Below, in pieces: positions 4,986 to 10,716 of a stretch of DNA of 64,000 nt. The translations under genes were made by a program, and so were the position numbers. How positions within the stretch are numbered: position 1 is the first letter of the stretch; each line of letters starts with the position of its first letter. This stretch comes from Escherichia coli (lineage in GTDB: Bacteria > Pseudomonadota > Gammaproteobacteria > Enterobacterales > Enterobacteriaceae): NCBI RefSeq assembly GCF_003018255.1, contig NZ_CP027440.1, one strand, 5' to 3'. The notes beneath the pieces are model-generated. The model did not search any database, had not been told where the DNA came from, and saw nothing but the letters and a program-made list of their open reading frames with translations.

Positions 4986-5798
4986 TCAGCACTCAACAAA
5001 CTGATGCTGTTCATTAAGGCGATAGCGGACTCCGGCTCGAATATTGTTTTCACCTTCAATGGCGACGGCGAAGCGAACTCTTTCGCCGTCATGATATGCC
5101 AGTGCGGCGCTTCCCCCTGGCCCGAGAATAATTGAGTCGACCACGCCCGTGCTCACTATTGTTGAATCTTCACCGCTGGCAATGATGTGTACATTGTCGC
5201 CGCTGTTGGCAATTCTGGCGTTTGCGCCAAAGCTGGCGATTTGCACCAGGTCACCATTACTGGCGACATGACATCGTTCACCCAATGTACAAACGCGTAC
5301 TCGCATTCCGGTATTCGCAATCCGACTGCTATCTCCAGCGCTGCTTATCCGCGAAGAATTACCGGTTACAGCAACCCGTGCGCGTTCACCGGAGCTGCCA
5401 ATGTGACTGTTAAAGCCGACACTTCCAATCCGCACGCTATAACCCATACTGGCAATTTGCGCGGCATACCCAGCGGTTGCGATTCTGGCATTATCCTCAC
5501 AACAGCCGATGCGAGCATGATCGTCGCTGCGGGCAAACTGACTGCAAAATGCTCTCTCTCCGGGATCTGTGGCCAGTTTTTGCATAGAAGAAACTTCCTG
5601 ATGCGCGAAGTTTTCATCCGCCAGCCATTTTTTCCACGCATACTCAACCAGACTCTCCGCCCAGTCCGTATATCCTTCCTCAATCAGTGCATGATGAATA
5701 TCGGCATAACTACCGCCGCGTGGGAAATGGCGCAGAAACCAGCGATACATCACCGCTCCGATACGCCATTCTCGCAGGTCTGCTCGTGTAATGATCAT
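4986..5798 (-). CDS. ydhT: Uncharacterised protein, last gene of ydhYVWXUT operon, 270 aa
   Basis: ORF 4986..5798 minus, starts 4 nt after ydhU stop; degenerate Gly/Ser-rich repeats in central region. Confidence 0.8.
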   Translation of the reverse strand: MIITRADLREWRIGAVMYRWFLRHFPRGGSYADIHHALIEEGYTDWAESLVEYAWKKWLADENFAHQEVSSMQKLATDPGERAFCSQFARSDDHARIGCCEDNARIATAGYAAQIASMGYSVRIGSVGFNSHIGSSGERARVAVTGNSSRISSAGDSSRIANTGMRVRVCTLGERCHVASNGDLVQIASFGANARIANSGDNVHIIASGEDSTIVSTGVVDSIILGPGGSAALAYHDGERVRFAVAIEGENNIRAGVRYRLNEQHQFVEC

Positions 5799-5801
5799 TC
5801 G

Positions 5802-6587
5802 TTAGTGCCGGTGATAGCCATCGACCATGCTTTTAAAGGTTTCGTGTGGCGTACGCCCCGTGGTGCAAAGATAAAGATGACCGAAGATAAAAAAGAGGCT
5901 TATAAATGCCAGAGCAAAATGCGCCTGCAATAACCAGTATCTTACGCCAGGAAACATATCTCCCACGGCTTGCGGATAGAGACACAGCAGCCCCGTCAAT
6001 AGTAACAATGGCAGCAATCCATACATGACACCAACATAGGCGACCTGCTGTAAGGGATTAAATTTAGACTGGGTTGTTGCCGGGAAAGGATGTTCTTCCC
6101 CCTGCATAATGCCAAACAAATAGAATCGCGTTTGTTTTGCCGCTCGCTCCAGCCCCCCCTGACGACGAATGCGATAGTGGTGACCATTACCCCCAACGGC
6201 ATTGATCAGAACAAAGCCGAGCCAGCATGCCAGTAACAAAAATCCGCAAACTTCATGCACCGCAACCAGACTTTTAACCGTAGTTGCGCCCACCAGCGCA
6301 AAGTGATTTATCAGCCCACTTGCCAGCAACAATACAAAGAGTAACGCATTCGACCAGTGCCATAATCTGACCGCTTTGCTGTAAAGATAAACCTTCTCAC
6401 CATGGTCGTTGGCTGATTTCTTCACGCCACGAGCACGAAGCAAGGCATGCAGCCCCAGCACCAACCACATCCCTACCAGCAATAGTCCGGCAATGATCAA
6501 CCACACCGGCCAAAATTGGGGAGTGAACAGTGGCACATAGTTCGCCAACTGGCTCTGAAACTGTTCAGCATGTTGCGACGGGTTCAT
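5802..6587 (-). CDS. ydhU: Integral membrane cytochrome b-type subunit (PhsC/NrfD-like), 261 aa
   Basis: Hydrophobic multi-TM ORF; ATG overlaps ydhX stop (ATGA). Confidence 0.8.
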   Translation of the reverse strand: MNPSQHAEQFQSQLANYVPLFTPQFWPVWLIIAGLLLVGMWLVLGLHALLRARGVKKSANDHGEKVYLYSKAVRLWHWSNALLFVLLLASGLINHFALVGATTVKSLVAVHEVCGFLLLACWLGFVLINAVGGNGHHYRIRRQGGLERAAKQTRFYLFGIMQGEEHPFPATTQSKFNPLQQVAYVGVMYGLLPLLLLTGLLCLYPQAVGDMFPGVRYWLLQAHFALAFISLFFIFGHLYLCTTGRTPHETFKSMVDGYHRH

Positions 6588-7966: not shown

Positions 7967-10069
7967 TTACGCAGGCAGTAGATTGTGTGCTGCCAGATCG
8001 GCGGCAATATCTTCCAGCCCCAGACGCTGCAATGTTTTGCGGGTCGGACAACCAAGCTGTGGGTCCCAGCCCATTTCTTTGTAGAACATCGTGAGCGAAG
8101 CATGCATATCGTCACGGTCCATTTTGTCTGTACCTTCAGTAAAGACCGGGATCTGCGGATCCTTGTCGAATACCCAGGAACAGATAAGATCGTGTTCATT
8201 ACGCATATCTTTAGTTTGCATCAGTTTTACCGTGTAGGCGCGATGCAACGTAAAGATACGCTCTGCAGCTAAATCTAATTTTTCCTGAGTCATATCTTCG
8301 CCAGTGATCGCTTTGAAGAATTTGGCTTCAAGCGCCAGATCGCCCCGATAATTACGGCTTTTCAGCGGCGAAACGGTCATTGGCCAGACCCAGTTGCACA
8401 GGGTGACGGCGTTATGCAAACAGACCCGCAACAGCGACCACTTAGCATATTTAATTTTTGCGTCATTGATTGGCGTGTAGTTTTTGGTTTCATCGTAAGC
8501 ATCTTCAGAACCAAAAAGTTCTTTCGCCACTTCACGTTGCAGTTTCAATGGCAAGCCGGAACCAATAAAGTTGATATGGGTATGCGTCATGCAGTCACGG
8601 TTGAACATACAGTTAACAATGGAGCCGACCTGCGCTGACGCTTCATTGGCGTGGTGAACTGGATAGCCAAACGGCGACCAGAGTTTATTTTTCGCGTAGC
8701 CCCAGTACTCTTCACCCAAATTCCAGCGTTCTGCGATGGCATATGAACCATCAGCCAGGTGACTCAGCTCACCCACGCGATGCGCCAGACGGTAGTAAAA
8801 ATCTTTAATGAAGTTAACGTCACCCGCTTCCAGTTGATCCCAGCGAATTTCCGCATACTCTTCAGCAGGCAGAACACGCTTGAACACCCCTTTGCTGTAA
8901 CAATAGGTAAAGTCGCGATGAAGCTGACCATAGTTACACCATAGGCCGTAGTCATCGAACAGATTCAGACCAACCAGGTTACCAATCACACGACCATCAT
9001 CTTTATCTTCAAAATCTTTCGGACCGTTCGGGAAGATGGTGGTATGGACAAAGTTTGCTACACAAGTGTTACCACCTGTGCTGGGCACGCCAAACTCTTT
9101 CACCCGAGGAATATTCATTTGGGTCATACAACGGATCGGGCAAGAGTGGCAGCCACTCATTTTTACTGTGTATTTCTCTGCCGCCGGACCTAAGTCAAAA
9201 ACGGATTTATAGGTACGAAAGCCGACCGTGTTCTGATTGCCTGGCGGAATCTCACCCGTTTCAATCGGACCACCTTCAGCCGCGCCCCAAAACAACCCTT
9301 TACGTGCAGTCCAACGTGACTTGGGATCTGAATACTCTGCCCACGATTGCGGCGTACTTGGCACGACATGGTTGTTATTCGCACCGATAAGTTCAGTCAT
9401 CATGTAATCGTTGAGACGCTTCATCTCCTGACGATCGGCAATGTTGACCCCTTTCGTCCCTTCAACCGCAATCGCTTTCAGGTTTTTCGAACCCATTATT
9501 GCGCCAGTTCCCGCACCACCGCTGTGGTTACGGCTATTCAACATGCCAGAGAGAGGAACAAGGTTTTCCCCAGCCTGACCAATAGCCGCCACACAGGTTT
9601 CCGGACTGGTCAAGCGACAAATTTCTTCCGTCGTTGCGCGCGTCCCTTTTCCCCATAAGAAATCGGCTTTTTCAAGGCTAACTTTGTCATCTTTAATCTT
9701 CAGCCATACCGGTGATTTCGCTTTCCCTTCGATAATAATGACGTCGTATCCAGCGAATTTCATTTGCGCTGCAAAAAAGCCCCCCATATGGGCATCGACG
9801 ACTAAATTTCCTTTGGTAAAAGTAGAAAGTGAGGTGATATTTACGCGAGAACTACAGGGGGCACCAGATCCAGTTAATGGGCCGGTAGCAAAAACTAATT
9901 TATTCGCTTCATCGAAAGGTTTCGTGCCTGGCGGTACTTCGTCATACATAATTTTGTAGCCGAAGCCCATGCCACCGACAAAACTTTTAAACTTACTGGA
10001 ATCTTCGAGGGTAATATTTCCTGTCGTGAGATTGACTCTTAATATATTACCTGTCCAACCGTTAGCCAT
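7967..10069 (-). CDS. ydhV: Aldehyde:ferredoxin oxidoreductase-family (Mo/W pterin) oxidoreductase, 700 aa
   Basis: Track ORF extends to 10153, but the ATG at 10069 has an AGGAAA RBS and gives N-terminus MANGWTGNILRVNL; AOR-family sequence. Confidence 0.85.
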   Translation of the reverse strand: MANGWTGNILRVNLTTGNITLEDSSKFKSFVGGMGFGYKIMYDEVPPGTKPFDEANKLVFATGPLTGSGAPCSSRVNITSLSTFTKGNLVVDAHMGGFFAAQMKFAGYDVIIIEGKAKSPVWLKIKDDKVSLEKADFLWGKGTRATTEEICRLTSPETCVAAIGQAGENLVPLSGMLNSRNHSGGAGTGAIMGSKNLKAIAVEGTKGVNIADRQEMKRLNDYMMTELIGANNNHVVPSTPQSWAEYSDPKSRWTARKGLFWGAAEGGPIETGEIPPGNQNTVGFRTYKSVFDLGPAAEKYTVKMSGCHSCPIRCMTQMNIPRVKEFGVPSTGGNTCVANFVHTTIFPNGPKDFEDKDDGRVIGNLVGLNLFDDYGLWCNYGQLHRDFTYCYSKGVFKRVLPAEEYAEIRWDQLEAGDVNFIKDFYYRLAHRVGELSHLADGSYAIAERWNLGEEYWGYAKNKLWSPFGYPVHHANEASAQVGSIVNCMFNRDCMTHTHINFIGSGLPLKLQREVAKELFGSEDAYDETKNYTPINDAKIKYAKWSLLRVCLHNAVTLCNWVWPMTVSPLKSRNYRGDLALEAKFFKAITGEDMTQEKLDLAAERIFTLHRAYTVKLMQTKDMRNEHDLICSWVFDKDPQIPVFTEGTDKMDRDDMHASLTMFYKEMGWDPQLGCPTRKTLQRLGLEDIAADLAAHNLLPA

Positions 10070-10089
10070 GATTTTTTCCTTTGCAAGAT

Positions 10090-10716
10090 TCACACAGTAA
10101 TATCTTTCCACTCGATAATTTTTAACGCCCCTGTTGGGCAGGCGTTTGCGCATTCACCGCATAACACACATTTCGAGGATTTTTTACTTTCGGTATTTAC
10201 GGTGGCCATCATCCACGGGCATGCCGTAGTACAGGCGCTACAGCCAATACAACGTTTATGATCGACGGTAATACAGCCTTCTTTCTGCTGCCAGGTAATC
10301 GCACCAATCGGGCAGACGTTCATGCATTGCGGCTCTTTGCATTGACGGCAGGTGTCCGCGGTATAGTTGAGATCGCCATACAGGCCGCCACCAGAGCCAA
10401 CCCCGTTATCGCCAAAGAAATAATTGCGATGGATTTTGATACGGGAGAAGAATGTCCCTACTGAGCCATCGTTGAAGTTGGTACAAGAGATTTCACAGCG
10501 GTGGCAACCCGTGCATCGCGCACGATGGGTCACCAGCACCCCTTTGGGTGTATTTATCAAGCCTACTGTGCCGCTATCAATATCTTCCTGTTTGCAACCC
10601 AAAAGTGACAGTAACGCAGGGGCAATTGTTAAACCAGCAAGGCCTTTTCCTGATATACGCAAGAATTCTAATCGCGTTAAGCCAATATTTAATAGTGGAC
10701 GATCAACCGGGTTCAT
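10090..10716 (-). CDS. ydhY: 4Fe-4S ferredoxin-like protein, first gene of operon, 208 aa
   Basis: Four CxxCxxCxxxCP-type cysteine clusters in translation; ends 21 nt before ydhV start. Confidence 0.85.
   Translation of the reverse strand: MNPVDRPLLNIGLTRLEFLRISGKGLAGLTIAPALLSLLGCKQEDIDSGTVGLINTPKGVLVTHRARCTGCHRCEISCTNFNDGSVGTFFSRIKIHRNYFFGDNGVGSGGGLYGDLNYTADTCRQCKEPQCMNVCPIGAITWQQKEGCITVDHKRCIGCSACTTACPWMMATVNTESKKSSKCVLCGECANACPTGALKIIEWKDITV

Follow-up and report, generated by a model that had tools for sequence, protein, structure and literature searches.

The orphan ydhYVWXUT operon of Escherichia coli encodes a membrane-bound Class V enzyme of the tungsten/molybdenum AOR/WOR superfamily with a predicted periplasmic orientation

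The stretch of Escherichia coli contig NZ_CP027440.1 analysed here (64,000 nucleotides, referred to below as the window) carries on its minus strand, at 4986–10716, the six genes ydhYVWXUT, an operon that is already named and known in E. coli and whose product belongs, as a membrane-bound "Class V" enzyme, to the tungsten/molybdenum (W/Mo) aldehyde-oxidoreductase (AOR/WOR) superfamily. On balance, and with some reserve, we favour the reading that this complex is a periplasm-facing terminal reductase that oxidises menaquinol, with electrons running from YdhU through YdhX and YdhY to YdhV. An earlier note on this DNA had described six tight minus-strand genes with the architecture of an anaerobic, periplasm-facing, quinone-coupled oxidoreductase; all six open reading frames (ORFs) are found, the gap figures agree, and the architecture is supported, its periplasmic orientation being a prediction. 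The orphan status of the operon is an acknowledged open problem, and ydhYVWXUT is among the last respiratory-type complexes of E. coli without a known substrate. What the present analysis adds is the fold and constant presence of YdhW, a phage-related origin of YdhT, and a decay of the twin-arginine motif of YdhY that is tied to YdhX and YdhU, none of which solves the substrate question.

The catalytic subunit is YdhV (7967–10069; 700 aa from MANGW), which the earlier note had placed in the aldehyde:ferredoxin-oxidoreductase family, correctly so, as both AFOR_N (PF02730, E-value 1.6e-67) and AFOR_C (PF01314, E-value 2.6e-47) are found by Pfam and the protein scores 1372.8 bits against the model NF007354 (cut-off 868). 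It is the large subunit (WorL) of the AOR/WOR family and has no signal peptide, and its sequence matches in the PDB include AOR, FOR and BamB, aligned mainly in the N-terminal domain, but no solved structure of YdhV itself. An alignment of 10 sequences, the most distant a Bacillota homologue at 48% identity, shows no variation in the cysteines C307-x2-C310-x3-C314, C558 and C336, and C558 is probably the fourth ligand of the [4Fe-4S] cluster beside the pterin. YdhV binds a redox-active bis-molybdopterin molybdenum cofactor (bis-Mo-MPT), with Mo preferred over W (PMC9103625, PMC13328260); Cys336 has been proposed as a metal ligand like that of BamB, and the second-shell residues of aldehyde oxidoreductases are absent (PMC12096430). 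On these counts, and on the negative substrate data given below, the literature argues against YdhV as an aldehyde oxidoreductase in the strict sense, a type of enzyme whose metal has no protein ligand. A search for substrates with YdhV gave none, possibly through loss of the [4Fe-4S] cluster on purification (PMC9103625), and the reaction that it performs has been described as unclear (PMC12096430). In June 2026, EcYdh was assigned to Clade 41, among the "Class V" WORs (PMC13328260), and the subunit set of that class is present here: YdhV, YdhY, YdhW and YdhX together with the five-helix cytochrome b YdhU. The earlier claim that the substrate is unassigned thus still holds, as in papers to June 2026 neither YdhV nor any other "Class V" W/Mo oxidoreductase has been given an activity or a physiological role, and none of them makes YdhV an ordinary aldehyde oxidoreductase with a defined substrate.

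The route to the membrane is suggested by YdhX and YdhU. YdhX (6584–7252; 222 aa from MSFTRRKFV) is an NrfC/PhsB/DsrO-like four-cluster protein with a twin-arginine signal, MSFTRRKFV...SLLA, whose TRRKF is present in every orthologue compared, and it has been listed as a predicted substrate of twin-arginine translocation (Tat) (PMC7549933). Its 16 cysteines are enough for four [4Fe-4S] clusters, two C-x2-C-x2-C-x3-C groups being found by pattern search and two groups by eye; with the 18 cysteines of YdhY in four [4Fe-4S] motifs, the operon does encode two poly-ferredoxins, as had been claimed. YdhX falls short of the NrfC equivalog model, scoring 250.5 bits where 377.6 are required, and its next-best family matches are DsrO and HmcB. 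YdhU (5802–6587; a 261 aa ORF) matches PF01292, the PhsC/FdnI/HyaC-type cytochrome b family, with an E-value of 5.9e-30 and the PhsC model NF011582 with 451.5 bits (cut-off 204). It has five predicted hydrophobic membrane helices, and H77, H95, H111, H223 and H237 are invariant in 8 orthologues, H223 and H237 lying 14 residues apart in the last helix; these features make YdhU a predicted PhsC/FdnI-type cytochrome b with two haems. It had been called "PhsC/NrfD-like", of which the first half survives and the second does not, since PF01292 alone is above threshold in Pfam and the NrfD family (PF03916, NrfD/PsrC, which lacks haem) gives no match to YdhU in the Pfam scan even at E-values up to 10. 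The RefSeq name of ydhU, "phsC, thiosulfate reductase cytochrome B subunit", derives from the equivalog model and may mislead automated readers: there is no phsA or phsB in or beside the operon and, because there is no PhsA, the name is not evidence of thiosulfate reduction.

YdhY (10090–10716; a 208 aa ORF) is the small subunit (WorS), and its N-terminus bears directly on where the catalytic pair resides. This segment, GLTRLEFLRISGKGLAGLTIAPALLSLLGC, is a Tat-derived signal with a single arginine, a hydrophobic stretch and a lipobox-like Cys41, and it is almost invariant in Enterobacterales; the second arginine is replaced by leucine, giving TRLEFL in place of the canonical TRRxFL. The earlier note had located a twin-arginine signal in YdhX, which is right as to TRRKFV, but YdhX is not the sole carrier of a Tat-type signal, given that YdhY has this conserved Tat-derived one. 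Among 120 members of the YdhY family, the twin-arginine position reads RR in 87 (canonical T-R-R-x-F-[LM]-K), RL in 17, RQ in 9 and RK in 1, the remaining 6 giving no pattern match, and a lipobox-like L-x-G-C is kept in many small subunits, RR and non-RR alike. At loci with enough sequence, the RR-type small subunits are found in operons of small subunit, large subunit and YdhW (S-L-W) that lack ydhX and ydhU, and the single-arginine ones in S-L-W-X-U operons whose YdhX has a canonical RR; since all of these operons belong to one clade, the link between RR loss and YdhX–YdhU counts as a single evolutionary event, not as a statistical association. In YdhY the hydrophobic stretch is preceded by positive and followed by negative charges, which predict an N-in, C-out topology with the Fe-S domain outside the cytoplasm, which favours a periplasmic YdhY–YdhV.

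The promoter of the operon is a class II FNR promoter, as the literature has shown, and its site is confirmed in the window: ydhYVWXUT has been listed as directly activated by FNR from a site at −42.5 (PMC3688515), and a perfect TTGAT-N4-ATCAA (TTGATnnnnATCAA, 10918–10931, not assigned to a strand), the sole perfect match to the consensus in the 64-kb window, lies upstream of ydhY. A box in this position with 0–1 mismatch is found in Escherichia, Citrobacter, Limnobaculum and Leminorella. Because the FNR site is centred at −42.5, transcription would start near 10882, leaving a 5′ untranslated leader of about 166 nt (10717–10882, minus strand); Rfam gives no match to this leader at E-values up to 1, which speaks against a riboswitch or other known RNA. 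Repression of the operon by nitrate through NarL/NarP has been published (Partridge 2008, by its title as cited in PMC10845959), and regulation by FNR and Fur is also covered by PMC10845959 and PMC7157518. A candidate NarL/NarP 7-2-7-like site with 2 mismatches (TAACCATAAAGGATTA, 10865–10880, minus strand) lies just downstream of the presumed start; the window holds no more matches of this quality than chance would give, and the site, weak as a sequence match, is suggested by its position and by the published repression. About 50 bp upstream of the FNR box there is a putative Fur box (TCAAATGATAATAAATATC, 10966–10984, minus strand) with 14 of 19 consensus matches, a level of at least 14/19 that is reached at only 18 positions in the whole window on both strands. 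It too is weak as a sequence match, and it fits the peak found at the ydh promoter by chromatin immunoprecipitation of Fur and the reported Fur regulation (PMC7157518).

Taken together, these components can be arranged into a mechanism in which menaquinol would be oxidised by the di-haem cytochrome b YdhU, and electrons would pass through four [4Fe-4S] clusters in periplasmic YdhX and another four in YdhY and from there, by way of the [4Fe-4S] cluster of YdhV, to its Cys336-ligated bis-Mo-MPT centre, where YdhV would reduce a periplasmic acceptor other than a simple aldehyde/acid couple. YdhX would be exported by Tat with its own twin-arginine signal; YdhY–YdhV would fold and take up their cofactors in the cytoplasm and then cross either by the degenerate single-arginine Tat-type signal of YdhY or by hitch-hiking on YdhX, and the N-terminus of YdhY would hold the pair at the membrane, perhaps as a signal anchor or through a lipidated Cys41. 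We favour a terminal reductase because the operon is FNR-activated and nitrate-repressed, the membrane module is PhsB/PhsC-like, the active site is ligated by a cysteine as in BamB, and the data on aldehydes are negative. Activation by FNR combined with repression by nitrate is the pattern of dmsABC and frdABCD. Among the negative data is the finding that CsWOR41, the Class V enzyme of Cetobacterium somerae, is inactive on 46 aldehydes (PMC13328260). The periplasmic side is indicated by the TRRKF of every YdhX orthologue, by the charges of YdhY, by the homology of the YdhY N-terminus to the canonical TRRxFLK signals of the 87 RR-type members of its family and by relatives encoded beside tatA/tatC, and a periplasmic enzyme has been predicted by others as well (PMC4257093, PMC13328260).

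Several observations weigh against this proposal. Tat signals normally need their second arginine, which TRLEFL lacks, and YdhV has no signal, so that export of the catalytic pair is only predicted. Cys41 is followed by K, R, T, S or D depending on the genus, which is not a consistent inner-membrane retention signal. The part that we assign below to YdhW is suggested by co-occurrence and by a predicted fold, and that fold matches no known Tat chaperone. Purified alone, YdhV is inactive and its [4Fe-4S] cluster unstable (PMC9103625). One study could not detect expression in MG1655 (PMC7157518), and in systemic infection a ydhX deletion was as fit as its competitor (competitive index 0.99; PMC7549933). 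The donor-side hydrogenases 1 and 2 are also nitrate-repressed (control of hya by NarL/NarP is noted in PMC3141248), such that the direction of electron flow is itself a proposal.

This last point lends itself to the reverse reading, in which YdhV would be a donor-side dehydrogenase that oxidises a low-potential periplasmic compound and passes electrons through YdhY and YdhX to YdhU, with menaquinone reduced at the cytoplasmic face in a redox loop of the kind operated by formate dehydrogenase-N. YdhU does belong to the FdnI/HyaC family and has the same two-histidine spacing in its last helix (H223, H237), the corresponding pair in FdnI also being 14 residues apart. However, formate dehydrogenase-N, the model for such a loop, is induced by nitrate, not repressed. 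The characterised aldehyde-oxidising clades of AOR/WOR enzymes oxidise low-potential substrates, but YdhV lacks the second-shell residues of aldehyde oxidisers and shares its cysteine ligand with the reductase BamB (PMC12096430), and a clade member showed no aldehyde activity (PMC13328260). We therefore think a dehydrogenase rather unlikely, though it is the alternative that we take most seriously.

A conduit across the membrane is a poorer prospect still, and we hold it to be quite improbable. In such an arrangement YdhY–YdhV would be cytoplasmic, with a Tat signal that is vestigial like that of NarG, and the haems of YdhU would link the pair to periplasmic YdhX, as in Dsr and Hmc complexes. 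The loss of the second arginine only in the clade with YdhX and YdhU would be explained in this way, DsrO and HmcB are the next-best families of YdhX, and NarG provides a precedent, carrying as it does a vestigial Tat motif that is bound by NarJ. Yet the hydrophobic stretch and lipobox-like cysteine of YdhY are strictly conserved, its charges predict an Fe-S domain outside the cytoplasm, and YdhX would be left without a periplasmic catalytic partner, none being encoded in or beside the cassette. Finally, it is hard to give much credence to an ordinary broad-spectrum enzyme of aldehyde detoxification for which YdhW and YdhT are assembly helpers only. YdhV bears the RefSeq name "aldehyde ferredoxin oxidoreductase", gut WORs of other classes do detoxify aldehydes (PMC13328260), and transposon insertions in ydhU altered fitness under many chemical stresses including furfural (PMC5064937). 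Nonetheless, the substrate search with YdhV was negative (PMC9103625), as was the panel of 46 aldehydes offered to CsWOR41 (PMC13328260), the active site is unlike that of aldehyde oxidoreductases (PMC12096430), and a wire of nine clusters leading to a membrane cytochrome b would be superfluous for detoxification.

The two remaining proteins, YdhW and YdhT, had been described as being of unknown fold; structure prediction now gives each of them a putative one. YdhW (7316–7954; 212 aa, with an alternative ATG at 7963) belongs to a family of 512 clusters at 50% identity, and its AlphaFold2 model, built from an alignment of 45 diverse sequences, has a predicted local distance difference test score (pLDDT) of 92.8. 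The model is an alpha/beta fold of two tandem winged helices, residues 38–118 and 122–205, with a repeated order of secondary structure. Its closest structure match in the PDB is the winged-helix repeat of SelB (2v9v; E-value 1.8e-3, probability 1.00), followed by RNA polymerase III subunits, ESCRT-II and ScpB; the sequence has no Pfam match and no PDB match by sequence or profile search. The protein is acidic (pI 4.5, net charge about −18), presumably cytoplasmic, and has no cofactor motif, and a nucleic-acid-binding winged helix is judged unlikely on account of this charge. A chaperone of the TorD/DmsD/NarJ type was rejected as well, because the predicted fold is not all-helical and there is no sequence match to those families. 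YdhW accompanies the small and large subunits in all 14 operon types sampled, from Bacillota to Enterobacterales, and these operons often adjoin tatA/tatC, FdhD or molybdenum-cofactor genes; for three distant homologues, the metagenome contigs were mostly too short for gene context. From this association and the modelled fold, YdhW is most likely a dedicated maturation or export-escort factor for YdhY–YdhV. At one metagenome locus (L057, 9879–11195), whose small subunit is of the RR type, the large-subunit gene is followed by two YdhW-family genes in tandem.

YdhT (4986–5798; a 270 aa ORF) is modelled (pLDDT 85) as a five-helix N-terminal domain (residues 1–77) followed by a beta-solenoid (87–270) of 9-residue repeats, with an invariant glycine every nine residues and no signal peptide. 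It has no PDB match by sequence or profile, and against solved structures the best Foldseek E-value is 0.28, to generic beta-helices. In AFDB50, Foldseek matches beyond the orthologues are DUF7666 proteins of many bacteria and of viral sequences, at E-values of about 6e-8 to 5e-4 and probability 1.00, and the YdhT sequence matches the phage family phrog_4433 over residues 52–270 (E-value 3.3e-6). The DUF7666/phrog_4433 proteins share the solenoid and occur in phages and in scattered bacteria without redox partners; YdhT, unlike them, holds a fixed place at the end of a respiratory operon, where purifying selection acts on it. PADLOC gave no match that would indicate a role in anti-phage defence for either YdhT or YdhW. 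Among the operons sampled, YdhT is present only in Enterobacterales, and it looks like a lineage-specific addition that would lie outside the electron path.

It is tempting to combine these threads into one account, although as a whole it is speculative and in our view doubtful. In the lineage to which E. coli belongs, Tat targeting may have been handed over as the operon gained YdhX, with its RR, and YdhU, YdhY losing its second arginine in the process; YdhY–YdhV would hitch-hike on YdhX, YdhY would be lipid-anchored at Cys41, and YdhW would be the first tandem winged-helix chaperone for signal binding or maturation of a Tat-dependent redox enzyme, with the strict conservation of EFLRISGKGLAG marking its binding site and a non-aldehyde reduction taking place at the Cys-ligated Mo.

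How the operon stands in relation to known systems can be briefly set out. The ydhYVWXUT operon of E. coli K-12 (b1674–b1669; Partridge et al. 2008, Reschke et al. 2019) has the same locus, genes, order, FNR site at −42.5 and flanks (PMC3688515), and apart from the strain nothing essential differs from the window. Class V (Clade 41) WORs such as CsWOR41 have in common with Ydh both main subunits, a protein of the YdhW family and the conserved cysteine ligand, and their small subunit bears a Tat-type signal that in YdhY is degenerate and of putative function, but CsWOR41 prefers W where E. coli YdhV prefers Mo (PMC13328260). Operons of the CsWOR41 type have three genes, a canonical RR and adjoining tat genes, and are without YdhX, YdhU and YdhT. 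S-L-W operons lie beside tatA/tatC and FMN_bind (PF04205) genes at three loci (L052, 5985–7786; L053, 1537–3843; L054, 4823–7240), one of which also has a fumarate-reductase-like flavoprotein; these neighbours hint that electrons are supplied differently where ydhX and ydhU are absent.

In Salmonella PhsABC, PhsB–PhsC resemble YdhX–YdhU, being a Tat-exported four-cluster protein and a five-helix PF01292 cytochrome b; Ydh differs in having no PhsA Mo-bis-molybdopterin guanine dinucleotide (Mo-bis-MGD) subunit, in place of which stands YdhV–YdhY from an unrelated cofactor family. BamB, which matches YdhV in sequence with an E-value of 2.6e-43, represents a sister clade within AOR/WOR that has the cysteine metal ligand and lacks the second-shell residues of aldehyde oxidoreductases (PMC12096430), but it is a cytoplasmic W enzyme driven by a low-potential electron-bifurcating complex, whereas Ydh prefers Mo and, to judge by its partners, works with the quinone pool and in the periplasm. 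Formate dehydrogenase-N (FdnGHI) resembles Ydh, as we read it, in that its catalytic subunit is periplasmic and is joined by an Fe-S subunit and by a di-haem cytochrome b from the family of YdhU; in contrast to Ydh, it uses a Mo-bis-MGD/selenocysteine subunit and a single Fe-S subunit with a C-terminal anchor, and it is nitrate-induced. The Tat proofreading chaperones TorD, DmsD and NarJ are cytoplasmic, carry no cofactor and are encoded with their redox enzyme, which is the role proposed for YdhW, but their all-helical fold differs from its predicted tandem winged helix.

The operon is nearly universal in its species, at least 80% of the block being carried by 5408 of 5426 complete E. coli genomes (99.7%); the block matches at 5431 places in complete E. 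coli genomes, 2 of them on plasmids, and one genome has two places. Beyond E. coli, one genome per species was scanned with a narrow YdhW alignment whose reach is mostly Enterobacterales. Of the 47 loci found in this way, 45 retain the order Y-V-W-X-U-T across nine genera of Enterobacterales (Escherichia, Citrobacter, Limnobaculum, Leminorella, Budvicia, Brenneria, Proteus, Serratia and Symbiopectobacterium), and a metagenome-assembled genome of Telmatospirillum has Y-V-W-X-U without T. Citrobacter sp. NCU1 (L012, L024) has two copies of the cassette, the second lacking ydhT. Identity between E. coli and Proteus is 80% for YdhV, 77–78% for YdhY, 69% for YdhX, 61% for YdhU, 41% for YdhW and 34% for YdhT, and the accessory proteins YdhW and YdhT evolve fastest of the six. 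Relative to other Escherichia species, the ratio of nonsynonymous to synonymous substitution rates (dN/dS) is 0.015–0.094 across all six genes, lowest in ydhV (0.015–0.017), about 0.05 in ydhT and highest in ydhW (0.086–0.094). This is strong purifying selection, and all six are therefore functional genes. The cassette is self-contained: its flanks vary by genus group, including GlpD (glycerol-3-phosphate dehydrogenase), gamma-glutamyltransferase, YacL/YddG, ttr genes in Citrobacter, and MoaA, and among the compared loci no conserved transporter or regulator lies beside it, so that the neighbours give no clue to the substrate. The absence of such a transporter or regulator fits a substrate that is met outside the cytoplasm. 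In Citrobacter the cassette adjoins the tetrathionate genes ttrRS and ttrBC (L011, 2068–5321).

The importance of the question is underscored by the dN/dS of about 0.016 in YdhV, which implies a real and regularly used function, and by the finding that Clade 41 supplies about 72% of the WOR sequences in a catalogue of human gut proteins, a share skewed, as its authors point out, by the large number from E. coli (PMC13328260). Once found, the substrate would give anaerobic gut metabolism a further electron acceptor or donor and would define the chemistry of the sole Mo-preferring branch of a tungstoenzyme family.

With regard to the locus itself, the stretch is 100% identical to the chromosome of E. 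coli NZ_AP045067.1, where RefSeq labels the genes ydhT, phsC (that is, ydhU), ydhX, ydhW, ydhV and ydhY, and the window is 100% identical to JNE23-011 and 98% identical to most other E. coli strains. The operon lies between ydhS and the pair fumD and pykF, and all six products pass their NCBIfam equivalog cut-offs. The genes are separated by 20 nt (Y–V), 12 nt (V–W, or 3 nt if the longer ydhW starting at ATG 7963 is used), 63 nt (W–X), −4 nt (X–U) and 3 nt (U–T). The longest ORF of ydhX reaches 7303, and a start at that in-frame ATG would add 17 residues (7253–7303) and close the 63-nt gap; it was rejected because the start is not conserved, the position reading ATA in other Escherichia and in-frame stops intervening in E. 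albertii and Limnobaculum. In this sole long gap, overlapping the ydhW stop codon, lies a hairpin, CCCTGA-AATT-TCAGGG (7306–7321, minus strand), with a 6-bp stem and an energy of about −8 to −10 kcal/mol. In a comparison of Escherichia and Citrobacter, neither a U-run nor compensatory changes are seen, and the stem is retained and the loop variable.

Elsewhere in the window, Rfam matches above the gathering score are RprA, RydB, STnc540, the Phe leader, two tRNAs and HPnc0260, the coordinates being 26613–26720 (+), 20948–21008 (−), 51397–51555 (−), 55396–55520 (−), 2674–2828 (+) and 2793–2955 (−). The HPnc0260 match lies on the opposite strand and overlaps the 3′ end of the second tRNA.

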